DNA of 63,005 nt, taken from the IMG/VR virus record IMGVR_UViG_3300042549_007806; one strand, given 5' to 3'. The DNA is from an uncultured virus (IMG/VR IMGVR_UViG_3300042549_007806) (Duplodnaviria; Heunggongvirae; Uroviricota; Caudoviricetes). The position numbers and the translations under genes were made by a program. Under the pieces are notes generated by a model that made no database searches, was not told the DNA's origin, and was given only the letters and a program-made list of their open reading frames with translations. Shown here piece by piece: positions 27,826 through 61,883 of this stretch. The first letter of the stretch is position 1. Each line of letters opens with the position of its first letter.

Positions 27826-30498
27826 TTATTTTTTGTAATATGTATCTATAAAGTCTTTTATTGTGTTGTAAGTTCTTTCCGTATTCAAGTCTAAATTATT
27901 AAATTCAGGAGTAACCCACATAATTTCTTGTCCTTTAGGGAAACTATTATAAACACTTTCTGGTAATGAGTAGATATCTCTTTTTTGTAGAACTACTAAG
28001 TATTGTACATTATCACCATTTAAGACTATAGACCCTAAATCCACCCCTCGTGGGATTGATACTGATGTTATATCAATATTTGACACACCAAATATTGTGT
28101 TCATTTTTGTCAACAATTCACCCGCATTACCAGCGGCAACCATTTCTTTTTGTTTTTGTTTTACCATATTTAAGTAATCCTTGGGTAACTTTGGAACATA
28201 TTTCATATTGTTTTTTACAAATTCTCCTTGTTCTTTATCGATAATTCCCTCTTTTACTAAGTCGTCTACTCGATTTTTAAAAATCGGTAGAGCAATTTGT
28301 TGAGTCTTAATTATTTGATCATAACCAACTTCTTCAACTCTCTCCTCCAAACGATTGTTAGTCTTTTCAATTATCTTATCATTTTTCTTAATTATTTCTT
28401 GATTAGATTTCTCTCCTACTGCCGCTTTAGTTGCATCCACAATATTGTCATACTCACCAGGGTTGTCTTTATAATAACTAAGCCTGTTATAAAGTTGAAT
28501 TATCGTGTTGTCCGCAAATCCTGGAACTGCGATTTGTAGTACGTCGGTCCATTCATTACCTCCAGGTATTTTACCCATATATTGCTCAAACCCAAATTCT
28601 ACAATTGACTTACCTGATATAAAATCGATATATTCGGGTAACCAGTAAGCCTCAAATAAATTTTTATCCTTGGTGTCCATCCCAACTACATTTCTCGCCT
28701 TTTGGAATGCGTCAAAAATAGCAGAGAGTAATCCGGCAACAAACGGAACTAAAATATATCTTAAACCAATAGTTTTTAATGTGTTGTAATAAATCGTCCT
28801 TCCTCTATATCCCTTTGTTGCCAATAATCTCTCAACCTCTCTAGGTGTCTTCCAAGATCCTGTCGTAAACCATGACAGTACTTTACTGTTCATAATAAAC
28901 TCACCCATTTTGTCCTTAATAACTGTGGTAACTTCATTATTTTTTACGGTTTTGGACATGTCTTCGAATTTTTTACTAGTTTCTTCTGACATTTTTTTAA
29001 AGTCCATACCACCCTCATCGACAGATGCTTTATTAAAAAGGTCTCTAATAGATGCTGATCTAAAACCCGGAGGTTGTTCATCAACCACTTTACAAAAACT
29101 TTGGAATGACTCTATATCTTGTTGGGTTGTAAGTTTCTTAACCGCGTTTTCTTTGAAAGCCTTCCACAAATCTTCTACAAAAAGTTCTCGACTATATTTT
29201 GCCGGATCCAAAATAATTTCAGATCGTAGTTTTAGTAATCTATCTTTTATTTTAAAAAGATAATATGGATCTAACTTTGTTGGGTTTTCACTAACATTTC
29301 TATATGCTGCCAATCCCTCTCCGAACGCCTTTTCAAATTCTTTAGCATATGTTTCAAATTTAGGTTTCAAGGTACTATTGATTACTGCATCAACTAATAC
29401 TTCAAAATTTGCAACCCACCATCTAAATAATGGTCTAAAATATTTAACATACCATGAATCAAAATTTACATTTTTCGCACTCAAAATTTTAAATGTGTTT
29501 CCTAATTCTTCCAATCTTTCTGATCTAATTACAAATTCAAGGGAGTCATCAAGATTTACATCAATCCCCTTTTTGAAATCATCAACATCTTTTATAAATT
29601 GTTTTTGTTGGTCGTTTAATTCATCCTGATTTTTTTGTAATAATTCTTCGTATTTGCTTAAAAACTTTGCATCAACTCCTTGTCCACCAATGCTTTTAAT
29701 AACCTCATCAGCGTTTAAACCTAAAGGGGCGTCCCCATATTTTACAGTTTTTGTTCTTTTTGGATAGTTGAATACTTGTTTGTTTTCAACCATATCATCT
29801 AGTAACTGTTTTGTTTTTGAAAAATTTCTTAAGAATTCTGATGTTTGTTGAAAAAGCAAGTTTGGATCCACTATCGACGGGTCAATTTTTCCCGTTTTTA
29901 CATTGTGTTTAATTATGTAATTAATGTTATCGTCGATCAAATCAAATACTTCGTCAACATTATTTAACTTTTGTCCTGATGTGGATATTCCATATATCGC
30001 CTCGTAAAAAGTTTCATCTAATAGCGTATATAAACGATTCATTGGATGGTTTCTGTTACGAAGTAATGCTTTTACGGCATCTTCTGATATTTTCTTTATT
30101 TGATCGGGATTAAGTTTAATTTTGGAAAGTCCCGCCAATGATGTATTCGGAACGGCATCGTCAGGGAATTTATTTGCCAAATCAGATAAAAAATCATCTG
30201 TAGTAGAAAGTATTTTTCTCACTTCGATGTCATTTCTTAAAACTTTCATCAGATTTTCAATTTCATCATCAGTAAGACCACCAGCTTCAATTAGTTTGAG
30301 TTGTATTTCATCTAATTCCGAATCAGTTATTTTAACGCCCTTTTGTCTTACAGACTTTAATATTGTCATAAAACTATCAAACGATCTAGGTGCTTTGATT
30401 GCTAAAGTTTTTAACCAAGTTCCTTGTTCAACAATTAGTTTTTGAACACCCATGAGTTCCTGTATTCTCGATATTTCAGATATGAGTTCTTTTTTCAT
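27826..30498 (-). CDS. Large helical protein with conserved N-terminal leader and a hydrophobic segment
   Basis: 890 aa; MKKELISEISRIQELMGVQKLIVEQ; ILVPFVAGLLSAIF. Confidence 0.75.
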   Translation of the reverse strand: MKKELISEISRIQELMGVQKLIVEQGTWLKTLAIKAPRSFDSFMTILKSVRQKGVKITDSELDEIQLKLIEAGGLTDDEIENLMKVLRNDIEVRKILSTTDDFLSDLANKFPDDAVPNTSLAGLSKIKLNPDQIKKISEDAVKALLRNRNHPMNRLYTLLDETFYEAIYGISTSGQKLNNVDEVFDLIDDNINYIIKHNVKTGKIDPSIVDPNLLFQQTSEFLRNFSKTKQLLDDMVENKQVFNYPKRTKTVKYGDAPLGLNADEVIKSIGGQGVDAKFLSKYEELLQKNQDELNDQQKQFIKDVDDFKKGIDVNLDDSLEFVIRSERLEELGNTFKILSAKNVNFDSWYVKYFRPLFRWWVANFEVLVDAVINSTLKPKFETYAKEFEKAFGEGLAAYRNVSENPTKLDPYYLFKIKDRLLKLRSEIILDPAKYSRELFVEDLWKAFKENAVKKLTTQQDIESFQSFCKVVDEQPPGFRSASIRDLFNKASVDEGGMDFKKMSEETSKKFEDMSKTVKNNEVTTVIKDKMGEFIMNSKVLSWFTTGSWKTPREVERLLATKGYRGRTIYYNTLKTIGLRYILVPFVAGLLSAIFDAFQKARNVVGMDTKDKNLFEAYWLPEYIDFISGKSIVEFGFEQYMGKIPGGNEWTDVLQIAVPGFADNTIIQLYNRLSYYKDNPGEYDNIVDATKAAVGEKSNQEIIKKNDKIIEKTNNRLEERVEEVGYDQIIKTQQIALPIFKNRVDDLVKEGIIDKEQGEFVKNNMKYVPKLPKDYLNMVKQKQKEMVAAGNAGELLTKMNTIFGVSNIDITSVSIPRGVDLGSIVLNGDNVQYLVVLQKRDIYSLPESVYNSFPKGQEIMWVTPEFNNLDLNTERTYNTIKDFIDTYYKK

Positions 30499-30539
30499 TT
30501 TATATAAATATACCCTAATTATTTAAATAATATAGTTTA

Positions 30540-32666
30540 TCAGTTCTTTATCAAGGTGTCTGATTTTTTACTTACCATATTTAACATATTTTCATCAAAC
30601 TCGAGGTCATTTAAATCATCGGTAATTTCTTTTATTTTTTTTCCTTTTTGTTTGTTTAATTCCTCCTGTACTTCTTCTTTAGTGACTTGACTTTCATTCT
30701 TCTTTTCCCACTCAAGTTGATTTTTTTCGATTTGAGAACTCGCTTGTTCTATAGCTAATTTTATTGATTTTGAATCTAAAGAAATATTACCGTAATTATT
30801 TATTTTGTCAAATTTTTTGGAGTCTTCCAATAATGATTCTAATGTATCATTTCCACAAACACCGTCAGGATTCAATCCTCTATTTTTTTGATATTTTTTA
30901 ATTACATTTTCAGTGTATTTATCATAATATCCCCATTTGAATGATGAATTAACGGCACCCAAATTATATGCGGGAGACGACTTTTTCAAAGAAAATATTT
31001 TGAAGTTTCGTTTTGTATCGTCCGATAATGTAATATTAACTATATATACCCCTTCTTGTAATTTAGACATGTCAACAAGTATGTTAGTTTTTTCATCATT
31101 ATTTTTTGATGCCATTTCTCTACCGTAAACACTATACACTTTGACACTACTTATTTCTTCAGCATTCTGAAAGTTCAAAATCATATTTTTACTATCGTAG
31201 CTATAGCTAGCAACTTTTTGATCACTTTTAATACCTAGTTTTTTTAGAACATACTGAATAAAAACAACTTCATACATAAAAGTATTCTTAAAATTTTTCT
31301 CACTAAATGTAAGATTAGATTTTATTATTTGTTCCAATGACATGACAACAATATCCTTTAAAGTACTAAGTTGTTTCTCTATGTCATCAATTAGTTTTTC
31401 TTTCTCTTCTGTATCGCATCTTTCAGCAAATCTTTGTGTTGCTCCGCCAATTTTACCTAAGAGAGATAATATTTTATTTTCTGAACCTTCAAGGTCTTGT
31501 AGACTAAACGACCTACAAACTCCAAGACCACTTGCGATTGCGTCCCATGTCATAAAACCACCTCCCATTACAAGACCTGCTTGTGTTAAAAAATTTGCAG
31601 GTAACAAAGATTTTTTTACTAAGTATAGTAAAAATTCTAAAAACTTTTCTACATTTTTAGTTAGAGTCATTAGTGTTTTGGTTACTACATTTTTCATGGC
31701 AGTTTTAAGTGCCAATTTTACATAATAGTCTTGATTCTCAATAAATTCATTTAAAGCTTGTCTTTCTTGTGAACTTAACGATTCGGAACCGATCTTTCCT
31801 GCTTTCCATAAACCTAACTTTTCTAAAAACTTTTTGAACTTAGGTATGCCCATATTCTTTAGGTATTTTGCCAAAAGAGTAAAACCAGGCACTAAAGCAA
31901 ATACCATACCTAATCCTGCCATATATATATCACCATCTACCGTGGCATAAATAGCAGCATCTAATAATTCGAGTGAAAACTCTACTAATCCATAACCTAA
32001 ACTAGTTCCAATACCACCCGTCGCTATTGCAACTAATACCGCAGATACGGGTAACACAACATGTAAAAGTTCTCTTGTATATGGAGGTATCATTTGTTTG
32101 GCTATTGTTGTGGATGGGTCAAAAACTGATTCATAAGAATATTTTTCATATGGATTAAATTTTTGAAGAATATTTTGATATTGTATTAACCATTTGTCAT
32201 TTTTCTGATATTGTATTTCAGAAGCCATATTAACATCCCTATTAAGTTCTTGAAAAAATGGGTCTTGGGCAACACTAAACTCTTGTTGTTGTAAAAACTG
32301 AATTATTGTTAACCCTACCGATTCGGGAAAATTTTTGTGTATTAATTTTAAAAGTATGTCATACTGATTTTTGTTTTTTAAGGTTTTTAATGATTCTAGT
32401 AATCCGTCCTCATCTGTACCCCATTTCCAAAACTCAACCCAGTATGAATCTTTGTTTATTTCTTTTTTAATTTTTTCAAAAACTCTATATGCAACTGTCG
32501 TGTCTTTAGATGGTCTGTTAGTATCAATTAATGGTTGGAACTGCCCTTCTGAACCTAATCTATCACTTTTAACGGTTTGTTCCATTAAAGTCTTAGATCT
32601 ATCAAAATTGATTAATGATAATTGTCTAAGTAGTTCAATATTTAGTGATAAATCTTTGTCCATCAT
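30540..32666 (-). CDS. Leader-bearing protein with hydrophobic helices and a peptidoglycan-binding domain interrupted by a T9SS-CTD-like domain
   Basis: Start reassigned to ATG 32666, which overlaps the upstream TGA; VIKKYQKNRGLNPDGVCGNDTL; LQEGVYIVNI. Confidence 0.65.
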   Translation of the reverse strand: MMDKDLSLNIELLRQLSLINFDRSKTLMEQTVKSDRLGSEGQFQPLIDTNRPSKDTTVAYRVFEKIKKEINKDSYWVEFWKWGTDEDGLLESLKTLKNKNQYDILLKLIHKNFPESVGLTIIQFLQQQEFSVAQDPFFQELNRDVNMASEIQYQKNDKWLIQYQNILQKFNPYEKYSYESVFDPSTTIAKQMIPPYTRELLHVVLPVSAVLVAIATGGIGTSLGYGLVEFSLELLDAAIYATVDGDIYMAGLGMVFALVPGFTLLAKYLKNMGIPKFKKFLEKLGLWKAGKIGSESLSSQERQALNEFIENQDYYVKLALKTAMKNVVTKTLMTLTKNVEKFLEFLLYLVKKSLLPANFLTQAGLVMGGGFMTWDAIASGLGVCRSFSLQDLEGSENKILSLLGKIGGATQRFAERCDTEEKEKLIDDIEKQLSTLKDIVVMSLEQIIKSNLTFSEKNFKNTFMYEVVFIQYVLKKLGIKSDQKVASYSYDSKNMILNFQNAEEISSVKVYSVYGREMASKNNDEKTNILVDMSKLQEGVYIVNITLSDDTKRNFKIFSLKKSSPAYNLGAVNSSFKWGYYDKYTENVIKKYQKNRGLNPDGVCGNDTLESLLEDSKKFDKINNYGNISLDSKSIKLAIEQASSQIEKNQLEWEKKNESQVTKEEVQEELNKQKGKKIKEITDDLNDLEFDENMLNMVSKKSDTLIKN

Positions 32667-33112
32667 GATGCGTATTTTCCTGTTGGTCCGTAACCTCTTC
32701 CTGAAGTCCATTTATAACCCGTACCTTGGTAAGTCGGACCTTTAGTTCTCCCACTATCCCAAACAGTGTTCCCGACAGGGTTTCCCTTAGATCTATTGAC
32801 TCCACTTTCCCACTTACTTACAGTACCTCCCCCTGAAGATGCGGTATCAGTAGTGGTATCTGTGGTAGTATCTGTTGTAGTTGCAGTTTCTTCACCCTCT
32901 TCTTTGATTTCACCTTCACCCATCCCATCAGAATCATAACTATCCATTTCTTTGTCCATTTCTGGATTTACACCATATTGTGATGGTCCTGTTTGTCTTG
33001 GGTCTTGGTCGTCCGCATAGTCACCATACGGATCTTTTGTAAACTCCGTTGATCCTTCTAAGATATTCATCAAATTTTTGATGCGTGATATGCTCTCTTG
33101 TAAATTTTTCAT
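32663..33112 (-). CDS. Leader-bearing hypothetical protein with W-x-S-G repeats
   Basis: MKNLQESISRIKNLMNILEG; WESG/WDSG/WTSG. Confidence 0.7.
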   Translation of the reverse strand: MKNLQESISRIKNLMNILEGSTEFTKDPYGDYADDQDPRQTGPSQYGVNPEMDKEMDSYDSDGMGEGEIKEEGEETATTTDTTTDTTTDTASSGGGTVSKWESGVNRSKGNPVGNTVWDSGRTKGPTYQGTGYKWTSGRGYGPTGKYAS

Positions 33113-33149
33113 TTACTAATAAATACTTTAACAATAAGAAAAATAAGAT

Positions 33150-34487
33150 TTATCCTTTGTATTGTAAATGGAAGTGAGGACCTGTGGAAGCATCCGAGGG
33201 GTCATTATATTCGTCAATATAACCGAATCCAGAATATTGACCTTTATAATTATTCAATAGATTTATAAATTGGCGATGATAACCCCCATCCAAAGTAACA
33301 TCTAAAGCCTTACCCATAGAGTGTAGACTAGTATAATTTAATCCATGATGGAATTTATCATTTCCAGATGTCACAACTAAATTTGCGTTAGGAACCATTT
33401 TTTTAAATTCCTGAAATAGTGATGTTACAATACCTAAAAACTTAGGATCAACATTTCCTCCACTATCTATATCTGCACCACCACCCTTTAGTTGTACGCC
33501 AATATTAGACATTTCTTGTTTGAAATCCGAAACGGACCTGTTAATCATCTCGAATTCATCTTCAGGTTCAACATCTTTTAATATTTTACTTAAAAACTTA
33601 CTCAAGTCATCCTCATCAAATCCATGAACTCTTAATTCATAAATTAATTCCTCTAAAGTGTCATTATCAGATATACCTGTTGGTTGAATTGTATTATCCA
33701 TTTGGAACTTTTTTACCGCCTTTTCTGTTTCTTCATCGTAAAACCCATTTTCGGTCAAGTCCCCATACCCTAAGAATGATAATGCTATTTTAATAATCCT
33801 AACATCATCAATATCACTAAACCTGTCATCAATACTGTAACTATTTTTTGATTTAACAATTAAATCGAAGTTATCTAAAAACTCATATATCGTGTCGTAA
33901 TCTGTTTCGTCATTAATATTAAGGTTTTGGTTTTTCTGTAAAATTTCTTTTTGATCTTCATTTTCAAATTCAAATCCACCATCGTTAATAAAATTATCAA
34001 CAACCCCTCTTAGGTTTCTTATAACTTTACTACCCTTTGAAAGTACCTCATCCCCAAAAGAAAAGTAGTTACCGACAACATTTACTTTGTCTTTTTCTAA
34101 CATCTGATGAAATATGATTTCATCATCACCAATTTTGTCCCATTGTTCGTCATCAAAGTCATATTCATCGATATCAATATATCCTTTCATCAAATAAAGT
34201 TCAGCATTAGGAAATACTCTTGAAAGTTCATTAACTAATGCCGATATGCTCGTATTTGGGTCAAATAAATCGTTTGACCCAACAGAAAAAAACAAAGTAT
34301 CAACAAATGGATATGGTTCTTGTCTAGTAAGTTGCATCAATAATAGATTGACATCGATGTTTGGATCTATAAGGTCTATTGGTCTAAATAAATCTGAATT
34401 ATCCAACAAGTAGGCAATTTCATCACCGATTACTGCAACATTTGGTTCGTTAACAAAATCCTCTTGTAAATTAAAAATCTTTTTCAT
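33150..34487 (-). CDS. Peptidoglycan-binding protein with C-terminal M15/LAS-like metallopeptidase and a degenerate SGNH-like N-terminus
   Basis: ETEKAVKKFQMDNTIQPTG; VTSGND..SLHSMGKALD...HFHLQ (H-x6-D, HxH). Confidence 0.7.
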   Translation of the reverse strand: MKKIFNLQEDFVNEPNVAVIGDEIAYLLDNSDLFRPIDLIDPNIDVNLLLMQLTRQEPYPFVDTLFFSVGSNDLFDPNTSISALVNELSRVFPNAELYLMKGYIDIDEYDFDDEQWDKIGDDEIIFHQMLEKDKVNVVGNYFSFGDEVLSKGSKVIRNLRGVVDNFINDGGFEFENEDQKEILQKNQNLNINDETDYDTIYEFLDNFDLIVKSKNSYSIDDRFSDIDDVRIIKIALSFLGYGDLTENGFYDEETEKAVKKFQMDNTIQPTGISDNDTLEELIYELRVHGFDEDDLSKFLSKILKDVEPEDEFEMINRSVSDFKQEMSNIGVQLKGGGADIDSGGNVDPKFLGIVTSLFQEFKKMVPNANLVVTSGNDKFHHGLNYTSLHSMGKALDVTLDGGYHRQFINLLNNYKGQYSGFGYIDEYNDPSDASTGPHFHLQYKG

Positions 34488-34789
34488 TTGATTTGTGTTT
34501 TAGGTAGTTTGTCGGGATACACAACATAATATTCATTCAAAAATGTCAATAAGTCATCTTCGTTATTAATATAATCATATTCATCATTATCCCATTCGTC
34601 CTCCTCGTCGATTATTGATTCAAAAATATCAAAGTCTTTACTGTTGTCAAAACCAAACTCTTCAAAAAAAGAATATTCGATAATATCTTCTCTTACATTA
34701 TCTTCAGAGTCGCCTAATAACCTAAACTCAATGTTTATTATATTTTGAGTTTTGTCAACATAATGTGATATAACTTCAATTACTTCCAT
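34484..34789 (-). CDS. Acidic hypothetical protein
   Basis: 101-aa ORF overlapping its neighbours. Confidence 0.65.
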   Translation of the reverse strand: MEVIEVISHYVDKTQNIINIEFRLLGDSEDNVREDIIEYSFFEEFGFDNSKDFDIFESIIDEEDEWDNDEYDYINNEDDLLTFLNEYYVVYPDKLPKTQIK

Positions 34790-35283
34790 TAATTGTATTT
34801 TTGAAATCTTTTGAACATATCTAATGATTTATATACATTCTCCTCAATTTGATCTCTTTGTTGTTGTAAATCTTCATCCTTATTAAGTAAATCATCTAAA
34901 TTAGATTCTTCGTAAACTTCTTCCTCCACTTCATATTCATAAACATCCGAAGGTCCCTTTGATTCAAAATCATAAGGTCTTTTACCCATACCCATTTGTG
35001 TCATAGATTGTTGTGGACCTTTAGAGTCAAAGTCATACGCCGGTGTAATCTCATCATAGTTGAGTGGTTTTGCTGTAATCTCATTAATATTATGATTTCT
35101 GTAGTTCCCAACCTCACCTCTAGAATTAACAGTAATTCCTTCTTTATCACCAGTGGCGTCGTAAACCCTCAATGGAGTCATATTAGATGGAATATTACCT
35201 ACCGCATAACCATTATATAATTCACTGTGTTTTTTTAATATTTCTTGTCTTTCATCATTAGACATTATTGAATATCCTCTCAT
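34789..35283 (-). CDS. Hypothetical protein with YDF.SKGP repeats
   Basis: 164-aa ORF; MSNDERQEILKKH. Confidence 0.7.
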   Translation of the reverse strand: MRGYSIMSNDERQEILKKHSELYNGYAVGNIPSNMTPLRVYDATGDKEGITVNSRGEVGNYRNHNINEITAKPLNYDEITPAYDFDSKGPQQSMTQMGMGKRPYDFESKGPSDVYEYEVEEEVYEESNLDDLLNKDEDLQQQRDQIEENVYKSLDMFKRFQKYN

Positions 35284-35963
35284 TCTATTTCTTTATTTAA
35301 AAATTTATTACCTCCAAACATCCAAAATTGTTTAGCCGTTGTTGCCAAACGACCCATAGTTCTTTGAACCCTCGGAATACTTATTTCTTCGTTTTTTTTC
35401 TCAAGATATTTTAAGGATGCCCTTACAAACAAATCATAAATGTCTTGGGATCGACCAACAAGTTTATCTATAAGTATCTGCTTATCTTCATCAGGAGTTC
35501 TGTGGTAACTTTGTAATTTGAAAAAATCTTTTATATAGTCAGGACCCATTAATAAAAACTTACCACCTTCCGTAGCCATATTGTGTGAACCGATTCTTCT
35601 TTCAAGCTCCAAAAACTTATATATCTCATCTAAATCTCTTGTTGAAAAACATGCTAAAAAATCACCTTTAGCCATTAGGTCATCAAGATTTTTAAAATTA
35701 ATTTCTTGTATGTCTTCCTTTTTTTCTTCTTCATCCATTAACCACCCATCAACATCGGGTAATAATGAAAGAGTACTGATTACTTTACCATCATTATCAA
35801 ACCAATTCACTCGGTATTGGTAATCAACGGAACCACCGAAAGAAGGTATTTTTTCTACTTTTATAACTTCACCTTTAGTTCCGGGACCAACATCCTCCCC
35901 ATCCATATGGACAAGAATGATTTTATCACCGGTGTCAAGTTTAGGGTTTAATCCTTTTTTCAT
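35280..35963 (-). CDS. Hypothetical protein
   Basis: 227-aa ORF with upstream TATTTATA. Confidence 0.7.
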   Translation of the reverse strand: MKKGLNPKLDTGDKIILVHMDGEDVGPGTKGEVIKVEKIPSFGGSVDYQYRVNWFDNDGKVISTLSLLPDVDGWLMDEEEKKEDIQEINFKNLDDLMAKGDFLACFSTRDLDEIYKFLELERRIGSHNMATEGGKFLLMGPDYIKDFFKLQSYHRTPDEDKQILIDKLVGRSQDIYDLFVRASLKYLEKKNEEISIPRVQRTMGRLATTAKQFWMFGGNKFLNKEIE

Positions 35964-36019
35964 ATCTATAAATAGTATATAAAAACAAAACCCAATCGTA
36001 TGATCAGGTTTTGTTAAAA

Positions 36020-36640: not shown

Positions 36641-36659
36641 GTGGAGGTGGTTTATACCA

Positions 36660-36667
36660 CAAATATA
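36660..36667 (-). promoter_or_regulatory. Bacteroidota sigma70 -7 element TATATTTG
   Basis: Matches TAnnTTTG, ~20 nt upstream of the CAP gene. Confidence 0.6.
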
Positions 36668-36711
36668 TACATTTTTTTATTTTTAAAGATATTTATTTTA
36701 AAATATTTTAA

Positions 36712-38292: not shown

Positions 38293-38293
38293 T

Positions 38294-42135: not shown

Positions 42136-42138
42136 ATA

Positions 42139-51527: not shown

Positions 51528-51532
51528 TTGGT

Positions 51533-52096: not shown

Positions 52097-52121
52097 AATT
52101 AAATTGTTTTATATATAAATA

Positions 52122-52964: not shown

Positions 52965-53056
52965 AAAGATAAATACAACAAGGAGGGGGTTTGGGGGAGG
53001 TTCAGGTCAAAAAAAATTTTCCAGAAATTGACCTTCACCATCCACTATAAATGATT

Positions 53057-53617: not shown

Positions 53618-53667
53618 GAAAAAATATAAATAAAAAAAATCCCCCGATCAAATGAAAGGGGGAAATT

Positions 53668-53841
53668 TTAAAAATTAAAGGTATCTTTTAATGTCTTAAA
53701 TCCGAGATAATAAATTAACATCCCAAGAATGGCTCCAAATATTTCATTCACATATTTTACATAATAGGGAATCCCCATAAGGGCCAAAAACATAAAGACC
53801 ACAAGAAGGATCAAAAAGAGATGAGGTTTTAAACGATTCAT
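53668..53841 (-). CDS. Small two-TM membrane protein (57 aa); not in the ORF track
   Basis: Hand translation MNRLKPHLFLILLVVFMFLALMGIPYYVKYVNEIFGAILGMLIYYLGFKTLKDTFNF; followed by a hairpin. Confidence 0.5.
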   Translation of the reverse strand: MNRLKPHLFLILLVVFMFLALMGIPYYVKYVNEIFGAILGMLIYYLGFKTLKDTFNF

Positions 53842-53924
53842 AATTATTTTTTAAAAAAATGATCCACCATTACAAAAATGGAGTAAACAATAATAAATCC
53901 AACTATTACAACAGAATCAACCAT

Positions 53925-54104
53925 TTATAATTTAGATACTTTATTCATAAGGAATCTTAATTTATTTTCCAAATCTCTAATTTGCAAAAGTTGTTGTTCA
54001 TTCAAATTAATGGATTCCCCCTTAATGGAAGAAATTTTATTTTGTATTTTTGTGTGTTCATACATCAACTGTGTATAAAGTTCGGCTTTTTGCTGATTTG
54101 TCAT
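53925..54104 (-). CDS. Small coiled-coil protein (59 aa); not in the ORF track
   Basis: Hand translation MTNQQKAELYTQLMYEHTKIQNKISSIKGESINLNEQQLLQIRDLENKLRFLMNKVSKL. Confidence 0.6.
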   Translation of the reverse strand: MTNQQKAELYTQLMYEHTKIQNKISSIKGESINLNEQQLLQIRDLENKLRFLMNKVSKL

Positions 54105-54189
54105 AATTAAATATAAGTTATTTTTTTATAAAGGAAAATAAAAAACCCCACCTTTATGATGGGGTCGATTATTTTATAATGAATAAATG

Positions 54190-54648
54190 TTAGTTTTCAG
54201 GTCCAATTTTATCACTAATGGCTCCCACAATTCCTTTTTTTAACATCGTAATATATAAAGTTAAAGTTGCAATGGCAGCCCCGATTACTTTAGCGGTTTC
54301 AACAGTATCACTATCAATAACTTTGCCTGATTCCAATTTAGCAATGTCTGTTTCCAATCTTTCAAGATCTGCAGCAAGTTTTTTATTTTCTTGTCTCAAT
54401 CTTTTTCTTTGTGCTGCTTTACGAAGTCTCATTCTTAAAGTACCACCAACGATTGCTTTTTTAGAGACCAACTGAGATTTAGTTTTTTCCAATTCCATCT
54501 TTAACGCTTCAAGTTCCTCAACTTCTTGTTCCAAAGCAGTTTTAGTAGATTCCTCCTCACCTTGTTCATTTAAAGAATTGTTGTACCCATGCTTTCTATG
54601 CATTTCAAGAATTTCATTCTTTTCTGATTCTGTTAAAATATTTTTCAT
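54190..54648 (-). CDS. Leader-bearing coiled-coil protein with C-terminal hydrophobic helix
   Basis: MKNILTESEKNEILEMH...LNEQ. Confidence 0.7.
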   Translation of the reverse strand: MKNILTESEKNEILEMHRKHGYNNSLNEQGEEESTKTALEQEVEELEALKMELEKTKSQLVSKKAIVGGTLRMRLRKAAQRKRLRQENKKLAADLERLETDIAKLESGKVIDSDTVETAKVIGAAIATLTLYITMLKKGIVGAISDKIGPEN

Positions 54649-54725
54649 AATATAATTTTATTTTATTTGCTTATTTTAAATATAAATATATCTTAAAATA
54701 AAAAACCCTCTTTAGGGGAGGGGAT

Positions 54726-55103
54726 TTATAATCTTTCTTCATCATAACCGTAGATTGTTGTATACACACTAAATGGTAGAATTTCCAAATAATCAAGATA
54801 AAACGTTTCATCGAGTTCATTAATATACCACATAGAATCACCATAATCACTATCGGCCCAAACAGGATAATAGTCATCACCATCTTTAGTTATAGAATCA
54901 ATAATAATATCCATATCACCAACAGCTTCTACCCCCTTACCAACAACACTTCTAACAACAACGTGAAATTTAAATTCATAGTTAACATCTTGCGTGACAT
55001 TGTTATACCCATCATAAACATGTTCAACGTCTGTGAGCGTCATTTCAAACTCCTTATTTTCAAAGAGTTTTTTAAGTAAAGATATTAGTTTTTCATTTTT
55101 CAT
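54726..55103 (-). CDS. Hypothetical protein
   Basis: 125-aa ORF. Confidence 0.65.
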   Translation of the reverse strand: MKNEKLISLLKKLFENKEFEMTLTDVEHVYDGYNNVTQDVNYEFKFHVVVRSVVGKGVEAVGDMDIIIDSITKDGDDYYPVWADSDYGDSMWYINELDETFYLDYLEILPFSVYTTIYGYDEERL

Positions 55104-55474
55104 TAACGGGGATATTCTAAAGGTAATATTTTTTCCAAATGTATTTTACCCTTTTCAATAAAATAATCCATTAAAACTTTTCGAGGGATATATCTAAGTC
55201 CATCAGTAATTCTAAAATCTGATGAACTTAAAACACTAACAACTTTATTATTTTTAGTTAAAAAACGAATACTTCTATGCTTATAATCGTTAGGAAATTT
55301 AAAATAAAAAACAACAGAGTCATGGTTTCTTCCAAAATTATCATGGGTCCTTCCATCATATTCACAACCGTCATACTCAATACCTTCCATTTCCAAGATT
55401 TGTTCAACAATATTAGTCTTGTCGGAGGATTCCAATAGTTTTATATATTGAGATTCTGTAAGAATGATTTTCAT
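55103..55474 (-). CDS. Leader-bearing hypothetical protein
   Basis: MKIILTESQYIKLLES. Confidence 0.7.
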   Translation of the reverse strand: MKIILTESQYIKLLESSDKTNIVEQILEMEGIEYDGCEYDGRTHDNFGRNHDSVVFYFKFPNDYKHRSIRFLTKNNKVVSVLSSSDFRITDGLRYIPRKVLMDYFIEKGKIHLEKILPLEYPR

Positions 55475-55535
55475 ATAAGATAAATATATGGGAAAATAAA
55501 AAACCCCACCGATGAGGTAGGGTTTAGTTGTTTAA

Positions 55536-56219
55536 TTAATGTTTTTTCTGTAGTTCCTTACTATACTCTGAAACAGGAATAGGGGTTCCGACAGGGAAAG
55601 GGAAACCAATCTTTGCTGCCGTAACAGATGTTTGTCCGTTTTTAACAGGTACAGCTTTACGCAATGGGACCGCAGCTTCATTAAGTGGTCCATAAACTTT
55701 TGCCAACACAATACCTGTAGAAGTTGTATCAAAGATGATACCTGGCATTGCAAACATATTACTTTCACTTGTAGATGGTTTATCCATATTAATCACAAAT
55801 GATCTATTTTTAGGTGACATCATTTCCCACTTCTTAGTAGATGGATTAAATTGGGGAATAGTGGTGGTTGAATCATAATACCAAAACAAAGACCATACAG
55901 TATTACTTTTTCCGTTTGGAGTTTGGAAATTATCGTTCACATTGAACTTACCATAAGTATCACTAATACCTTCCATAGCCAAGTTGGATAAAGATGGTCC
56001 CTCCAACACAGGACAAATGGCACAACCCTCGTTATACTCAACACCTTGGACAACAATCTTTCTTCCCGTAGGAACAGCAGATGATGCTCCACAAAATGCA
56101 AATGATCCCTTGTGTAGTTTCACAATTTTATCAGACTTAATGTCTTCAAGAGTTTCAGTTTTCGTACTACAACCAATTAACATAGTTGTGGTAACAATAA
56201 ATAATAATAATTTTTTCAT
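55536..56219 (-). CDS. Lipoprotein
   Basis: MKKLLLFIVTTTMLIG-C lipobox. Confidence 0.7.
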   Translation of the reverse strand: MKKLLLFIVTTTMLIGCSTKTETLEDIKSDKIVKLHKGSFAFCGASSAVPTGRKIVVQGVEYNEGCAICPVLEGPSLSNLAMEGISDTYGKFNVNDNFQTPNGKSNTVWSLFWYYDSTTTIPQFNPSTKKWEMMSPKNRSFVINMDKPSTSESNMFAMPGIIFDTTSTGIVLAKVYGPLNEAAVPLRKAVPVKNGQTSVTAAKIGFPFPVGTPIPVSEYSKELQKKH

Positions 56220-56313
56220 AGGTTTTATTTTAAATATAAATATTATACATAAAAAAGAAAACCCCTCCGTTGAAGGAAGGGTTTTAATGTATAGTTCTTT
56301 ATTTTTTTAATTA

Positions 56314-56547
56314 TTAAAGTCCGACATATGAACGAAAATCATTTATGAGTTCATCATAAATCATATACACTTCGTCAATATTTTCACACTCCATTTCTTC
56401 ATCCATATCTAGGAACCCTCCAAGTTCTGATTGTATGTCATCGTACATATCTTCGGGACTTTGTTCTTCAGGTGAAGTTTTAACAAACGACATAAAATCA
56501 TTAAAAACATATTCCATATTTGAAATAATTACTTCACAGTCATCCAT
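56314..56547 (-). CDS. Small acidic protein
   Basis: 77-aa D/E-rich ORF. Confidence 0.55.
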   Translation of the reverse strand: MDDCEVIISNMEYVFNDFMSFVKTSPEEQSPEDMYDDIQSELGGFLDMDEEMECENIDEVYMIYDELINDFRSYVGL

Positions 56548-56562
56548 TTATTTAAACTTATT

Positions 56563-56838
56563 TTATTTACCTTTATATAGTATTCCACTTCCATAAGGGG
56601 AAGTACTACCGTCTTCTTTCTTTTTAACCTGACCCGAAACAATCACTATATTAGCAATACTATTACCATTTTTTACAAAGTAATTTCCTTTTTGACTTGG
56701 TTGGTCAGTAGGTTCAATTTTTGTCATAAGATAAGTACCATCAGGAAAATTAATTAAGTCACCTGGTGAGAATACTCCCTCATTTATTACACGTTTAACG
56801 ATACGTGATAAATCTCTTTCTGTTAATTTGTTTTTCAT
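56563..56838 (-). CDS. Leader-bearing hypothetical protein
   Basis: MKNKLTERDLSRIVKRVINEG. Confidence 0.7.
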   Translation of the reverse strand: MKNKLTERDLSRIVKRVINEGVFSPGDLINFPDGTYLMTKIEPTDQPSQKGNYFVKNGNSIANIVIVSGQVKKKEDGSTSPYGSGILYKGK

Positions 56839-56916
56839 AATATATTTTTTATTTGTTTATTAACGATTTAAATATAAATACCCCGATTTTCCTAAAATTT
56901 TTCTGGAATTTTTTTT

Positions 56917-57360
56917 TTAGAATTGTAGAGTACCTACAACTTGATTTTGAGTATCGGTTATTGATATACCTGGTTTTTCTTGTCCTGGTGCCATGACCCC
57001 TGAACTAACTTTATCACTATAAGTCCATTTGTAGTCACCCCCTTGGAACCCTCTGCCACCGATATTTTTAACCGTAAAGTTGTTTTTCCACTGATTATCA
57101 TAATCAGTTATTTGAATTCCGTCAACTGTAGTAGGGAAACCATAATCATCAAAATTAACAGTTCCTGTCTTTTTACTCATGAAATAATTCTTATCAAAAT
57201 TAGTTGTCCCTTCTTCTTCTGAAATAAGTGGTTTTGCATTACCAAGTTTGGCATTTAATAATCTTGAGAAATTTTCAGTCATAACTTTAATTCCTCCTGT
57301 GTGTTGTTCACGAATTCTATTTTTCTCCTCTGAACTTAAATTATTTAATAAGTGTTTCAT
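56917..57360 (-). CDS. Leader-bearing hypothetical protein
   Basis: LSSEEKNRIREQH...FSRLLNAKLGNAKPLISEE. Confidence 0.7.
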   Translation of the reverse strand: MKHLLNNLSSEEKNRIREQHTGGIKVMTENFSRLLNAKLGNAKPLISEEEGTTNFDKNYFMSKKTGTVNFDDYGFPTTVDGIQITDYDNQWKNNFTVKNIGGRGFQGGDYKWTYSDKVSSGVMAPGQEKPGISITDTQNQVVGTLQF

Positions 57361-57665
57361 AATATATTTCTTTAGTTATAAATACTCCGATTTTCCCAAA
57401 ATTTTCTGGAATTTTTTTTTAGTGTATAGGGGGTATTCCGATTTTTAAAGATTTTTTCCCAAAATATTTTTTAAGACCATATTACCTTTTTTAAAACTTA
57501 TACTCTGCAAGGGGGATTGACCCCCATTTTGGACCCTGTCAAAGTGTCAGAAAGAGGGGGGATACGGGGGAGGGGGACCCCAATTATTAAGGGGAGGGGG
57601 GTATGCCAAACAAAGAGGGGGACCTATAAGACCCCCCAATTGTTAATAAGTATTTTATATGGTGA

Positions 57666-57929
57666 TTAGTATTGTACAGGCGATAACTTCTTATCCTTAA
57701 TACAGTTCATTGCAGTTATTGCTTTCATCCCCACACCCATAGGATCTTTAGATGCCATTTCTAAAAGAGCTTCAATACATTTGCCAGGATCTCCTGCTGT
57801 ACAAGCCATAGGTACAGTGATCCCTGCAGATTTACAACATGCTGACAACTCTTTAGTGGGGGCAACTTGTTCAGACAATACTCTACTTACTATACGATCT
57901 ATGTCTGATTCATTTAATCTTCTTCTCAT
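57666..57929 (-). CDS. Leader-bearing small Cys-rich protein
   Basis: MRRRLNESDIDRIVSRVLSEQ; 5 Cys. Confidence 0.7.
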   Translation of the reverse strand: MRRRLNESDIDRIVSRVLSEQVAPTKELSACCKSAGITVPMACTAGDPGKCIEALLEMASKDPMGVGMKAITAMNCIKDKKLSPVQY

Positions 57930-57946
57930 TGTTTTATTTTTTAATG

Positions 57947-58060
57947 TTAATTTTATTTTTTACTTATATAAATATTAAGCCATGTCAAAAAAAATCCATA
58001 CCTTAATTTTATTTTTTACTTATATAAATATTAGGCCATGTCAAAAAAAATCCATACCTT
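57947..58060. repeat. 56-bp tandem duplication of a promoter region
   Basis: ttaattttattttttacttatataaatatta(a/g)gccatgtcaaaaaaaatccatacc x2, one mismatch. Confidence 0.9.
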
Positions 58061-58190
58061 TGTAGTGTAACCTTTTTAATCGGGGGGGACCGAGTAGACT
58101 CCAACCTGCCTTATATTTTTATATAAGGATCCCCATCTTTTTGTGAAGGACCCTCTTGTCCTTGTCGAAATGTTTTCATATCTTTATAGT

Positions 58191-58364
58191 ATGAAAACAA
58201 TTCTATTTATAAATCTTATGTTCGCTTATATTGTCATTGGAGCTTCTATCTTCATGGGGGTTTGTTTAATGTCCCTTAAGTATTTCCCCACCTCTAAAGT
58301 AAGTGGATTCATTCGTCGTCATGTTATTACTGATGTTGACTTGGATCCTCCCCATCAGGACTAA
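58191..58364 (+). CDS. Small membrane protein
   Basis: MKTILFINLMFAYIVIGASIFMGVCLM; ATG at 58191. Confidence 0.45.
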   Translation: MKTILFINLMFAYIVIGASIFMGVCLMSLKYFPTSKVSGFIRRHVITDVDLDPPHQD

Positions 58365-58671
58365 AGAATTTCTCTACATGTTCTATACTCATATTAACTA
58401 TGAGTGATCTTATTTCTTGGTAGTCATTTTCTGACAGGTTATAGTATTGATTTAAAAACTGTAACACATCCCCCATGTCTGCATCCACAATTACAAATTG
58501 TCTTTTACTAAGGATTGGTTTCTTGGACCACTTCTTTTTTGCAAACTCAAAAAATACAACCCCATCATCTGTGAGTCCTTGCTTATGTTTGAATAAACAT
58601 TTGATCCCCATCTTATCTTCTACCACACATTGGGTATACTGTTCTTTAAGAAATTTCTCTATTGCGTTCAT
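58327..58671 (-). CDS. Hypothetical protein
   Basis: 114-aa ORF with upstream TATTTAT. Confidence 0.6.
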   Translation of the reverse strand: MNAIEKFLKEQYTQCVVEDKMGIKCLFKHKQGLTDDGVVFFEFAKKKWSKKPILSKRQFVIVDADMGDVLQFLNQYYNLSENDYQEIRSLIVNMSIEHVEKFFSPDGEDPSQHQ

Positions 58672-59152
58672 ATGTACCGTTAATGTTAATAAATATTTGA
58701 TACATTTTAAATAGTAAATTGGGGGTGACAGTATGTCAGGGGGGAATTGTTGATAAATATTTATTGTATTTTTCTTGATTTTGTCAAAATGTCAGTCACG
58801 ATTCACACAGGGGACAATCCCTTTCCCCACTTTTTACCACACAGGTCTACCACTATTTACCACCACAATCCCCTCTGTTGCTATGATCAGCCTAAAAAAT
58901 CCCCTCTGTAGGGGTCTACAGGACTAGTTTTTTAGGTATATACATTTTCCAGCTAATTTGTGTTCTTATGATGAGGGTGGGCGGGAGACGATAGTCCTAT
59001 AGTTCTTCCAACGATTAGGGGACCTAATGTACCCCCAATTATGTGTCATTTAGTCAGTCCCCAACACTTGTGGTAATATGTGGGACATATTAAACATATC
59101 ACTTATATCAGGTTTAACCTGACAACAATGATATAAAACAACAGTCCCTTCG

Positions 59153-59201
59153 TATATGTTCCTGATCTTATTCACTCCCTTTAATAACGATAGTTTATAT
59201 A
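59153..59201. repeat. 49-bp exact direct repeat (second copy 61268-61316)
   Basis: tatatgttcctgatcttattcactccctttaataacgatagtttatata at both sites. Confidence 0.9.
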
Positions 59202-59560
59202 ACTGAATACCACAGTAGAACATACCATTAAACCACACCATAAGAAATGGGGGACCTGTCTTTAGATGGGGGGAACTTACTAAGTAGTAACTTACCGAAT
59301 GGTAAGTTGTGTATCATGTATACGATCTATACATAAGAACCTCATCATGTATAAAGAATTAGATTTTCTATACATGTATATCGTAACCCCCATTACAGTA
59401 ATGTACATTACGATACTATTCTACATTATGTGTTACACAAAATGTGTAATGATCATTACGATAAAGTATATGTGGTAATTAATGGGACTTATCTCTTATA
59501 GAGATGTAATAGAATATCGGTTAAATGAACGATAATATACGATATCGGTTATATAGACGA

Positions 59561-59650
59561 TAATAAGAGTGTAGAATTAAATTATGAGGTGAATTCCGTA
59601 GTGATAACGAAGGACTATGAACCGAATGAATTAATCCTATACTCTTATTA
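59561..59650. repeat. Inverted-repeat-bounded element, copy 1 of 3 (others 60417-60503 and ~61315-61395)
   Basis: Arms AAGAGTRTAGAATTAA ... TTAA.YCTATACTCTT; shared internal GTAGTGA core. Confidence 0.75.
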
Positions 59651-60304
59651 AAATTTTAAACCAAAGATTAGATTAACACCCATAGGTTTAGTGTCAAAAC
59701 CAAAACCATATACAAACATATCATATTTTTCGAAAAGTACATTTGCCGTAAAATTTAACTTGTATGTGTTTTTTTCACTAACAACTTGATAATAAACATC
59801 TAAGTCTGAGAAAGACTCGTGGTAATCAACTAATTCTAAATTATAAAGTTGGAAATCAAAGTAAGAATTTTCTCTTACTAATTGGTGTCTTTCTTTACAC
59901 ACTCCTAAACCTAAATTGATTCTAATATCTGTACTACCGACAGTTATAATCTCTTTACCAACACCAATATTAAACAATGAGGGTTTAATTGCCGTACCGT
60001 ATCTTGTTGTGATTGTTGATGATTCGTAAACATATGAACCCCACTCTGTAACACCATATGAGTAGTTATCAAAATTTGTCTCTTCAGGAGTTGTCCATGT
60101 TTTAACTCTATCTTGAGCTGGTAACATTCCTCCGATTTTGTAGTCAAAGAAAATAGTGTAGTTTTTTACCGTTTTCTCTACTGAGAATCCCCAAGCCGCT
60201 TTTGGTAAATTACCATTATATAGTAATGAAACTCCTATTTGTTTTTGTGAAAAAGAAACAATTGATACTAAAGAAACAAGAGCAACTAAAAGAAGGTTTT
60301 TCAT
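59648..60304 (-). CDS. Putative outer-membrane beta-barrel protein
   Basis: Signal peptide, alternating beta-strands and C-terminal GVNLIFGLKF; TATCTTTG promoter at 60334-60341. Confidence 0.6.
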   Translation of the reverse strand: MKNLLLVALVSLVSIVSFSQKQIGVSLLYNGNLPKAAWGFSVEKTVKNYTIFFDYKIGGMLPAQDRVKTWTTPEETNFDNYSYGVTEWGSYVYESSTITTRYGTAIKPSLFNIGVGKEIITVGSTDIRINLGLGVCKERHQLVRENSYFDFQLYNLELVDYHESFSDLDVYYQVVSEKNTYKLNFTANVLFEKYDMFVYGFGFDTKPMGVNLIFGLKF

Positions 60305-60506
60305 ATTGTGATGGGGGTTAAATGATTACAATACAAAGATAGTGATATTCCTCATATCTACAATGAAAAAGTCAAGTTTTTTTTAAATAAAAATCCCCTT
60401 ATAAAGAGAGGGGGGAAAGAGTATAGAATTAAATTATGAAACGAAGAATGTAGTGAATGAAATGAACGGTAATGATGAGTGAGTAAATTAAATCTATACT
60501 CTTGAT

Positions 60507-60851
60507 TTATATCTGACAAGTAATATTATTTCCGTTAACCTCACAAGTAATTTGCTTTTCTAATAAAGTCTTTAACTTTAACTCTAATACACTTTTAATC
60601 TTATTGACATCGGAATAGTTTTGTATTTCATATTCTACATATGTTATATCTTCTGAGGTAATCTGCGTAAGATCTGAGATATTTCTTAACTCATTTAATA
60701 TAACATAATCTATTGTGTCTCCATTACACTTATTACACTCTCTTTGTACATCACCATTGATTGTAATATTAACTGTACTCATATCCTCTTTAATTACTCT
60801 ATGGACTAAGTTAATCAATTCACTTTCAGTAAGTCTAATAATTTTTTTCAT
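60507..60851 (-). CDS. Leader-bearing hypothetical protein
   Basis: MKKIIRLTESELINLVHRVIKED. Confidence 0.7.
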   Translation of the reverse strand: MKKIIRLTESELINLVHRVIKEDMSTVNITINGDVQRECNKCNGDTIDYVILNELRNISDLTQITSEDITYVEYEIQNYSDVNKIKSVLELKLKTLLEKQITCEVNGNNITCQI

Positions 60852-61202
60852 TTAACAGAGTTGGTTTGCGTAAGTTATAAAGTCATCAGGTAATTTACTA
60901 TATCCTCTTGGTGGTTTGATAACATTATCACCACACACCTTTACAATTGTAATACCTTCAGGGTTTGTGATATTTGCTGGCGGATTCATCCATTTTAATT
61001 CTATAACCTTTGTATTAAAAGTTTTCTTCTCACCTCTAGGGTTTGTTTTGTCTACAGGTACAGACTTTGTTGAATCACTTACATTAACCACTTGATACTG
61101 ATGAGTTTCTTGCCTCCCATCCATAACAAAACTAAATGTCTTTGTCGGATCAGATACTTCCATAATTTGACGAATTCTATATATACTCTCCTGTAAATTC
61201 AT
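60852..61202 (-). CDS. Leader-bearing hypothetical protein
   Basis: MNLQESIYRIRQIME. Confidence 0.7.
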   Translation of the reverse strand: MNLQESIYRIRQIMEVSDPTKTFSFVMDGRQETHQYQVVNVSDSTKSVPVDKTNPRGEKKTFNTKVIELKWMNPPANITNPEGITIVKVCGDNVIKPPRGYSKLPDDFITYANQLC

Positions 61203-61394
61203 ATTAAATAAATATACCCATATTAAATAAATATACCCATAATATATTATATAAACTGTTATATTCTTATATGTTCCTGATCTTATTCACTCCCTTTAAT
61301 AACGATAGTTTATATATAGGATAAATTTGTGAGGTGAATTCCGTAGTGAGTTTACGAACGGTAGGATGGAGTGAATGATTTGATCGTATACTCT

Positions 61395-61883
61395 TTATTT
61401 ATACTTAAGGATCCTTTGTACTATTGGATTAGATAAGAATTTCTCCGTATCTTTCTTTACTTTATCTACATTACAGAATCTACTATTAAAGAACATATCA
61501 GGGATTGTATCACTTTCTTCATCCCATACATTTATCTCATACTCTTCAGGTGTTATTGTAAGTTGTCTATTATACCAATCATCTATTCTTTCCTCCACCT
61601 TATCCAATGTAATGAATCCATTGGAATCTAATAACTTATCCCCGATCTTTATATATACGTGCAACAAATACTCCTGTTCTATCTCTTCCGTGTCAATATT
61701 AACCTCGTTTGCCAGTAAAAGATAGTAAGTTACGTTTTTGTTCGGGAAACGTTCCCTAATCTTATCTATGATGTTATGTGCGAAGTAATGGCAATACCCG
61801 TGCTGATAGTCGTAATTCCCGTCGTTCCATTTGGACTCAAGGGTTTCTCTTAATATTCTCCTTACTCGTTCTTGTAGATTCAT
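61395..61883 (-). CDS. Leader-bearing protein, possibly a papain/transglutaminase-like fold
   Basis: MNLQERVRRILRETLES; GYCHYFA...LHVY...LLDSNG (Cys-His-Asp). Confidence 0.6.
   Translation of the reverse strand: MNLQERVRRILRETLESKWNDGNYDYQHGYCHYFAHNIIDKIRERFPNKNVTYYLLLANEVNIDTEEIEQEYLLHVYIKIGDKLLDSNGFITLDKVEERIDDWYNRQLTITPEEYEINVWDEESDTIPDMFFNSRFCNVDKVKKDTEKFLSNPIVQRILKYK

Follow-up and report, generated by a model that had tools for sequence, protein, structure and literature searches.

Recurrent N-terminal leaders on unrelated proteins of a T4-like jumbo phage: candidate capsid-targeting propeptides

Many otherwise unrelated proteins encoded by the DNA of an uncultured virus begin with one of a few short, recurring leader peptides. 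We analyzed these leaders in a stretch of 63,005 nucleotides (IMG/VR record IMGVR_UViG_3300042549_007806; this whole stretch is referred to below as the window), which, judged by sequence comparison, is part of a T4-like jumbo phage. The leaders are located at the N-terminus, are selected at the level of the peptide, behave as modules, and co-occur with T4-type head genes. With somewhat more belief than doubt, we read them as probable capsid-targeting propeptides of the T4 kind, greatly expanded.

In phage T4, the prohead protease gp21 removes N-termini after Ile/Leu-x-Glu. The T4 record gives MKTYQEFIAE/A as the start of the internal proteins IPII and IPIII, and MAKINELLRE/S as that of gp24 (here and below, a slash follows the last residue of a leader or cleavage motif). 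The internal proteins of T-even phages are described, in PMC3012670, as diverse and as having nothing in common except their conserved capsid-targeting sequence (CTS). According to PMC9958956, the T4 CTS brings GFP into heads; this paper and PMC10229621 describe its use in loading foreign proteins into the head and its removal by gp21.

The window has 31% G+C, with the exception of two giant collagen-repeat open reading frames (ORFs) at ~45%. A second IMG/VR record, G001 (78,576 bp, 27% complete according to CheckV, whose size estimate is about 290 kb), represents the same phage: G001:28966-78576 matches window positions 63002-13392 with 99.998% identity over 49,611 bp. It extends the right end of the window by 28,965 bp, and the two records together form a 91,967-bp composite with 106 genes. 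A relative, G002, is a complete IMG/VR genome of 321,403 bp with direct terminal repeats and 365 ORFs, in which 28 of the 106 composite proteins have a match.

Leaders shared by unrelated proteins

The original prediction quoted 22 N-termini, and every one of the 22 start positions proved to be an ATG opening an ORF with the quoted N-terminus. Their resemblance exceeds that seen in internal, C-terminal and shuffled controls. In ungapped pairwise comparisons (BLOSUM62) of the 54 window genes of at least 75 aa, 19 of 1431 pairs scored at least 35 over residues 2-26. No pair reached this score over residues 41-65 or at the C-termini, and ten shuffles gave a mean of 0.7 and a maximum of 2 such pairs. 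The bodies behind the leaders are unrelated, as had been claimed. After removal of the first 35 aa, BLASTP (E<=1e-3) among the window genes matched only the pair of collagen giants and a shared PG_binding_1 domain, and 47 leader proteins of the composite fall into 43 body clusters.

The leaders had been divided into two families, A and B, a scheme that gave way to six types. These are A1 (MKIIITESQY..L.E), A2 (MKKIIRLTESEL..LV.RVIKE), A3 (h[ST]E.[ED]K..I...[HY], often extending to ..hh.EQ), B (L.E.I.RI..LM, also often extending to ..hh.EQ), C (MK.LI[RK].IL[KR]EE) and D (M.NIEQY..RF..L.ES..GDVRPLI.E). Each leader is a short helix at the N-terminus, basic and amphipathic, with an N-cap box (hydrophobic-Thr/Ser-Glu-x-Glu/Asp/Gln) as its first part and hydrophobic-(hydrophobic)-x-Glu as its last. 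Leader profiles were built and their hits counted throughout the composite and in relatives, as the prediction had proposed; iterated searches assigned one of the six types to 44 of the 106 composite genes and to 33 of the 365 G002 ORFs. PHROGs contained no family for any leader.

The profiles find their targets at protein starts. Scanned over the six-frame translation of the composite (1133 segments), they gave 36 hits of at least 16 bits, all beginning 0-3 residues from a Met, and the sole further hit of at least 8 bits scored 9.4. Of these 36 hits, 35 were seeds of the profiles, so the informative part of the scan is the absence of internal hits. Applied to internal segments, the iterated A1 profile hit 1 of 402, and those of the other five types hit none. 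Where two leaders have the same amino acid, the codons differ in 39-53% of cases, including switches between TCN and AGY for Ser and between AGA and CGT for Arg. Selection therefore acts on the peptide, and these codon differences rule out a DNA-level repeat or recombination cassette as the source of the leaders.

Homologous bodies can carry different leaders. Between this phage and G002, one pair of homologous bodies has an A1 leader in the former and an A2 leader in the latter, another has B and A1, and for two more genes of this phage, one with a B and one with a C leader, the homologue in G002 lacks a leader. In an AlphaFold2 (AF2) model of the A2-leader protein encoded at 60507-60851, residues 1-24 have a pLDDT below 50 and do not pack on the fold, while the body reaches 70-80; as the alignment has seven sequences, this evidence for a detachable leader is modest.

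Recognizable domains of leader proteins are mostly directed at the cell envelope: a soluble class-A-like PAP2 phosphatase, a lysozyme with LysM, and a peptidoglycan (PG)-binding protein, none of which has a signal peptide. Among the cargo domains named by the prediction, PAP2 and PG-binding were recovered; LysM was absent from the window at a Pfam E-value of 0.01 or less, and a Phage_lysozyme+LysM protein, which has an A1 leader, is encoded just beyond the window, in the G001 extension. The GH19 endolysin, glycosyltransferases, a methylase, a UvrC-like nuclease, an FKBP protein and a thioredoxin have no leader. The same is true of the window genes with genuine signal peptides (36020-36640, 39213-41447, 55536-56219 and 59648-60304). 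A Sec or lipoprotein signal peptide was considered for the leaders themselves and rejected: they are charged amphipathic helices without a hydrophobic core.

Leader ends, head genes and distribution

The end of the leader was the subject of a check named beforehand, namely that [ILV]xE should be enriched there over shuffled sequences, and the enrichment was found. The last residue of such a site falls within residues 10-27 in all 35 strong leaders, in 10 of the 12 weak leaders and in 16 of 59 other genes, counts that cover related sequences amounting to about six independent families. Shuffled strong leaders contained it in 17.9 cases on average, and none of 2000 shuffles reached 35. Typical endings are RVINE, RVIKE and RVLSE (all A2), LIVE/Q, VISE/Q, PLISE and ILKE/E. 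The terminal Glu of A2 is present in 6 of 6 leaders and in 174 of 177 motif instances among metagenomic hits, and it is also invariant in C. Under a stricter definition, hydrophobic-hydrophobic-x-Glu, 50 of 77 leader genes and 61 of 369 others have the site, again for about six independent families, and in 16 of these 50 cases it is followed by Gln (background, 3.4%). In the metagenomic A2 hits, sequence conservation drops sharply directly after the terminal Glu.

This ending resembles a site in the major capsid protein. T4 gp23, whose propeptide has 65 residues according to PMC5694885, reads ...SFLTE/AEIGG at its cleavage site. In a MAFFT alignment this site coincides with [FHY]LINE/[AS] in seven capsid proteins of leader-bearing phages, which are close relatives of each other; the exception is QLVTE/T in the second major capsid protein (MCP) copy of the genome G006. 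[ILV]xE is eightfold denser in the N-terminal parts of the capsid proteins (34 sites in 520 residues) than elsewhere in them (31 in 3768). The leader ends have the hydrophobic-hydrophobic-x-Glu form of the capsid-protein site that aligns with the known cleavage site of gp23. The leaders also have the Leu/Ile-x-Glu form cut by gp21, in families that are not independent of one another. A complex prediction that paired the protease of G002 with residues 1-45 of one of its A2-leader proteins, run with no controls, gave no answer at a score of 0.00 and speaks neither for nor against binding.

The prohead protease gene, for which a search had been suggested, was found in relatives and not in the 92 kb of this phage. 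Nine of the ten large contigs with leaders encode a Peptidase_S77, which is above the Pfam cut-off in 5/5 and 4/5 large A2-leader contigs, the single miss being a fragment estimated as 48% complete. In G002, the genes for the large terminase, a gp20-type portal, two small core-like proteins, the S77 protease at G002:300317-301042, a scaffold-like protein (497 aa, very acidic) and a gp23-type capsid protein follow one another, which is the 20-67-68-21-22-23 order of T4. Between leader genes and this head module, at G002:286984-289029, lies the gene for a ClpB-like double AAA+ ATPase.

Leader genes also have an upstream motif. Within 27826..63005, a promoter-like (G/A)TATTTAT lies 8-45 nt before leader genes or operons of leader genes, often just after a GC-rich hairpin and T-run. 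In the composite, 39 of 81 TATTTAT occurrences are located directly upstream of gene starts, in 2.6% of all positions. It stands before 25 of the 47 leader genes, versus 12 of 59 others, and many leader genes without their own copy sit within tightly packed arrays. In G002, it is found before the terminase, portal, core-like, protease and scaffold-like genes. Leader genes and head genes have a promoter-like element in common. TATTTAT also precedes some genes that are neither leader nor head genes. A second promoter-like class, TAnnTTTG, which we take to be the Bacteroidota promoter -7 element, is found before 13 of the 59 non-leader genes, for example 36020-36640, 43937-45211 and 49004-49297.

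Type A2 is widespread in metagenomes. Among 1.84 billion proteins, its profile matched, at E<=0.001, the representatives of 5085 clusters formed at 50% identity; within the best 150 of these 5085, 149 carry a copy in their first 12 residues. The consensus reads MKK[IV][IV]RLTESDLxR[IL]VKRVI[KN]E[QD]. Ten A2 clusters that were looked up are all metagenomic and have no informative name. A degenerate DNA pattern of the leader was found in at least 122 IMG/VR stretches, with many of the matches listed being on contigs of 240-321 kb, and the complete genomes G002-G006 have 9-17 A2 copies each. The leader types are lineage-specific: the A2 profile gave a single weak hit in the uncultured phage LR745206.1 and none in LR756500.1. 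A full-text search of the literature yielded no paper with RLTESDL, LTESDL, RLTESEL or IITESQ, the matches to LQESI being unrelated by title. A search for work on CTSs, jumbo phages and metagenomes yielded only studies of T4, SPN3US and P1.

Two further observations were made outside this phage. Positions 69312-110112 of LR745206.1 (635 kb) encode another recurrent N-terminus (among others MKYLKYFES, MKHLNRFDEM, MKYIKSYKIFES, MIKKYLDFIKES, MVFIKKFES), which recalls MKTYQEFIAE of T4 in length and pattern, and a weak S77 match lies inside a 727-aa ORF of this phage. In four metagenomic A2 proteins with several modules (P0011, P0021, P0049 and P0053), every module consists of an A2-type leader copy followed by a Cys-rich segment, and a second motif, [ES]QLL[TN]E[ST], recurs.

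Capsid targeting and its alternatives

All tests run in silico came out as a capsid-targeting leader removed by a protease would predict, and this interpretation may be called partly supported. If it is correct, leader genes would be transcribed together with head genes from a common late-type promoter, and the leader would dock its protein onto the scaffolding core during prohead assembly. A T4-type (S77, gp21-like) prohead protease would then cut after the Glu, and the mature cargo would remain in the head and exit with the DNA at infection. Such cargo would include cell-wall and envelope enzymes that lack an export signal.

The likeness to T4 has several sides. In both systems, an N-terminal tag ending in [ILV]-x-Glu, like the CTS or the 10-residue propeptide of gp24, is found on otherwise unrelated proteins. 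The cargo genes are variable accessory genes here as well, and the relatives of this phage have the T4 set of head genes including the S77 protease. Type C (MKELIRHILKE/E), with 11 aa, resembles IPII, IPIII and gp24 in length and ending. T4 has one CTS type, whereas six leader types occur here; leader copies here are also found inside proteins, and the function of the leaders is read from sequence.

Other known systems are more distant. The cargo-loading peptides of encapsulins usually stand at the C-terminus, are not cut off by a protease, and serve a bacterial compartment rather than a virion. They are similar to the leaders in being short portable peptides for diverse cargo of an HK97-fold shell. 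The jumbo phages phiKZ, 201phi2-1 and SPN3US, as treated in PMC5694885, have a gp21-related protease and many packaged proteins, and the paralogues gp53 and gp54 share an identical 15-residue N-terminus with cleavage motifs. According to the same paper, the propeptides on head and ejection proteins of the phiKZ/SPN3US group mostly exceed 100 residues, are not shared widely, and are cleaved at Ser/Ala/Gly-x-Glu. Compared with this account, the leaders analyzed here are short, are common to proteins that are otherwise unrelated, and have the hydrophobic-x-Glu ending known from T4. What differs from the known systems is the leader sequences, the existence of six types with a common ending, their length, the share of genes that carry them, the internal copies and the metagenomic spread.

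A number of observations weigh against capsid targeting. No head gene or protease is present in the 92 kb of this phage (window and G001), and the link to the head module therefore rests on its relatives. Neither the A2 nor the C profile has a match in the T4 genome at E<=10; membership of the T4 CTS family by homology is not supported, and the likeness is architectural only. A tblastn search of 50,697 deposited phage records with a leader protein and with the 25-aa leader returned nothing at E<=10. With 11-28 aa (most 15-28), the leaders are longer and far more conserved than the CTS of T4, and there are dozens of leader genes per genome (the 44 and 33 given above) versus a handful in T4, a number that is very large for capsid cargo. 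Two of the leader proteins have ~900 aa. Two or three copies are present in 53 of the best 150 A2 hits, and some of these copies lie far from the N-terminus, which a pure N-terminal tag does not require. The evidence from the cleavage motif has its own weak points: besides the relatedness of the leaders and of the capsid proteins counted, shuffled leaders show an [ILV]xE site in about half of cases, and the stricter motif is found in only 6 of 21 type A1 members. [ILV]xE precedes 15 of 38 internal leader copies versus a background of 21%, an enrichment that we do not rely on because it is weak and some of the rows are near-duplicates.

The internal copies fit a serious rival that we nonetheless regard as rather unlikely. 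The leader could be an uncleaved interaction helix, a portable handle through which many accessory proteins reach a single conserved partner that is not the head core, such as a phage AAA+ chaperone, a replication or assembly site, DNA or a membrane, in which case the terminal Glu would just be part of the helix. The strongly basic, amphipathic character of the leader agrees with this possibility, any single conserved partner would explain conservation over 5085 clusters, and the ClpB-like ATPase of G002 adjoins leader genes and head module. Yet conservation stops at hydrophobic-hydrophobic-x-Glu, followed by Gln, Glu or Asp, in several differing leader types. That ending has the form of the predicted maturation site of the capsid protein, and the promoter-like motif is common to leader and head genes. 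Membrane binding in particular is disfavored by the acidic residues in the helix.

Hidden paralogy and expression effects are both less likely than an uncleaved docking helix. It is improbable that the shared N-termini are remnants of gene duplication, that is, that fast-evolving paralogue arrays have only their first helix still recognizable and no addressing function. Tandem arrays are indeed common (for example, the A1 and C arrays in G001), the MKY[IL]ITESQ array of G002 is alike over the first 36 residues, past the leader core, and a few bodies of the C array are detectably related. Against this stand the number of body clusters (43 for 47 leader proteins), the clearly different origins of the bodies (PAP2, lysozyme+LysM, DUF6576 and PG-binding), the homologous bodies with different leader types or none, and the presence of a single leader type on 5085 clusters at 50% identity. 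Still less probable is a conserved start that serves expression or turnover, either as a favorable translation-initiation region or as a tag for degradation or timing at the N-terminus. The first codons are rich in A (ATG AAA AAA ATT ...), and the host group is not known to depend on Shine-Dalgarno sites; but the codon differences at conserved residues indicate selection on the peptide, conservation spans at least 20 residues, and housekeeping and structural genes have no leader. Finally, another export leader, for instance of the double-glycine bacteriocin type, would be very surprising. In its first half (MKKI.RLTE.EL.N.I), A2 looks similar to double-glycine leaders, and some metagenomic carriers have Cys-rich modules. 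However, no Gly-Gly is found at the leader end, Pfam scans of the window and its extension revealed no Peptidase_C39 or ABC exporter, a Sec-like hydrophobic core is lacking, and the true signal-peptide proteins of the window have no leader.

If the leaders are capsid-loading tags, the set of proteins injected by many uncultured jumbo phages, which is known experimentally for few model phages only, could be read from sequence. Thousands of candidates for injected effectors would come into view, among them cell-wall enzymes, a phosphatase and many others of unknown family. The tags would further yield new portable labels for foreign proteins in large capsids, a use to which the T4 CTS has already been put (PMC10229621), and would mean that the 10-residue device of T4 can expand to a system spanning a large share of a genome. 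A more far-reaching version, which we put forward tentatively and with more doubt than belief, is that T4-like jumbo phages of aquatic Bacteroidota use an address code with several dialects. At least six interchangeable leader types, all with hydrophobic-hydrophobic-x-Glu and then Gln or Glu at the end, would mark tens to perhaps about a hundred head-loaded proteins per phage, internal copies would mark polyprotein cargo cut in the capsid, and the more than 5000 A2 clusters would be a reservoir of injected proteins. The leader share of genes in the stretches examined is 9-40%. Were this version true, the A2 reservoir would include envelope enzymes and probably anti-defense factors.

Leader genes of the window and their surroundings

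Five genes of type A2, all on the minus strand, were assigned in the window. They are located at 50612..50983 (MKKIVRLTESELTNLIGKIVKE/Q, 123 aa, with a profile hit of 42.4 bits), 60507..60851 (MKKIIRLTESELINLVHRVIKE/D, 114 aa, with the leader kept better than the body among orthologues), 45863..46156 (MERRITESEINRIVNRVINE/E, 97 aa, with its ATG at 46156), 56563..56838 (MKNKLTERDLSRIVKRVINE/G, 91 aa) and 57666..57929 (MRRRLNESDIDRIVSRVLSE/Q, 87 aa, with a Cys-containing body). Type A1 is represented on the same strand by 43317..43868 (MKIVITESQYRFLVE/N), 55103..55474 (MKIILTESQYIKLLE/S, 123 aa) and 52122..52964 (MKVLILESQYVSLME/D, 280 aa). The first of these has a DUF6576 body whose G002 homologue, at G002:1709-2212, has an A2 leader. 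DUF6576, described by Pfam as a short domain that ends Bacteroidota rhomboid-family proteins, stands directly behind the leader in both phages.

The A3 genes are also on the minus strand: 54190..54648 (MKNILTESEKNEILEMH...SLNE/Q, 152 aa), 47801..48988 (MGKKFVISENDKRHIMSLYGILSE/E, 395 aa), 56917..57360 (...LSSEEKNRIREQH..., followed by a type-D-like ...AKPLISE/E stretch; 147 aa) and 34789..35283 (...MSNDERQEILKKH..., 164 aa), whose A3-like N-terminus is kept in the G002 orthologue. Type B includes 27826..30498 (minus strand, MKKELISEISRIQELMGVQKLIVE/Q), 32663..33112 (minus strand, MKNLQESISRIKNLMNILE/G, 149 aa, with an acidic body), 60852..61202 (minus strand, MNLQESIYRIRQIME/V, 116 aa) and 42717..43328 (plus strand, MLLYEEILKIKNLMNLNE/T), the last with a soluble PAP2 acid-phosphatase domain and no signal peptide or transmembrane (TM) segment. 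The 890-aa product of 27826..30498 matches no Pfam family above the cut-off, and a search of IMG/VR for related loci with this protein found no relative.

Extended B leaders are found at 36712..38292 (plus strand, ...ILEEIKRFSFMTNYDPSKVINE/Q, 526 aa, a weaker member), at 47447..47776 (minus strand, ...KELKEMKYLFGYERGRVISE/Q, 109 aa) and at 30540..32666 (minus strand, ATG at 32666, ...LLRQLSLINFDRSKTLME/Q, 708 aa). In the second, the C-terminal part has its match in a G002 gene that lies two genes before, and upstream of, the large terminase; the third has two TM-like segments, a domain like the C-terminal domain (CTD) of the type IX secretion system (T9SS), and PG_binding_1. Two genes that had been placed in family B belong elsewhere: 61395..61883 (minus strand, MNLQERVRRILRE/T, 162 aa) is of type C, with twelve further C-type genes past the window end in G001, and 51533..52096 (minus strand, MKNIEQYRNRFNSLLESTIGDVRPLISE/V, 187 aa) is of type D, the same 28-aa leader being present on three G002 genes with other bodies. 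The NlpC/P60 gene at 41554..42135 (plus strand, MKLLKILKENIYE/QGG), which had also been counted as a leader gene, matches none of the six profiles, and its membership is doubtful.

The host is probably a member of Bacteroidota, because the phage encodes proteins that combine a Sec signal with a C-terminal domain for type IX secretion and has the TAnnTTTG motif before genes. Proteins with a Bacteroidota-style signal peptide and a T9SS C-terminal domain (CHU_C; Por_Secre_tail) are encoded at window 39213-41447 (minus strand) and at G001:15566-17131, and are candidates for secretion via the T9SS of the host during infection. A giant eukaryotic virus, suggested by collagen repeats and by SAP and MORN domains, was ruled out because relatives carry the T4-type head module. 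The GH19 endolysin of the window has 66% and 72% identity to ORFs of two records named "uncultured phage" (635 and 462 kb).

In the region 46167-47776 (minus strand), a 425-aa protein is 65% identical to the product of the G002 gene directly upstream of the large terminase, and its neighbor matches the next G002 gene upstream; in the window the terminase is not adjacent. The two giant ORFs with collagen triple-helix repeats (6803-15688 and 15798-23894, minus strand; 2961 and 2698 aa; ~45% G+C, as noted above) have as neighbors, within 1-6795, genes for two GT2 glycosyltransferases, a 2OG-Fe(II) oxygenase, a DUF6445 protein, a FAD-dependent (UDP-galactopyranose-mutase-like) enzyme, an FkbM-type methyltransferase and a small Pro/Thr-rich protein. 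Together with these neighbors, the collagen ORFs look like a cassette for modified collagen-like fibers.

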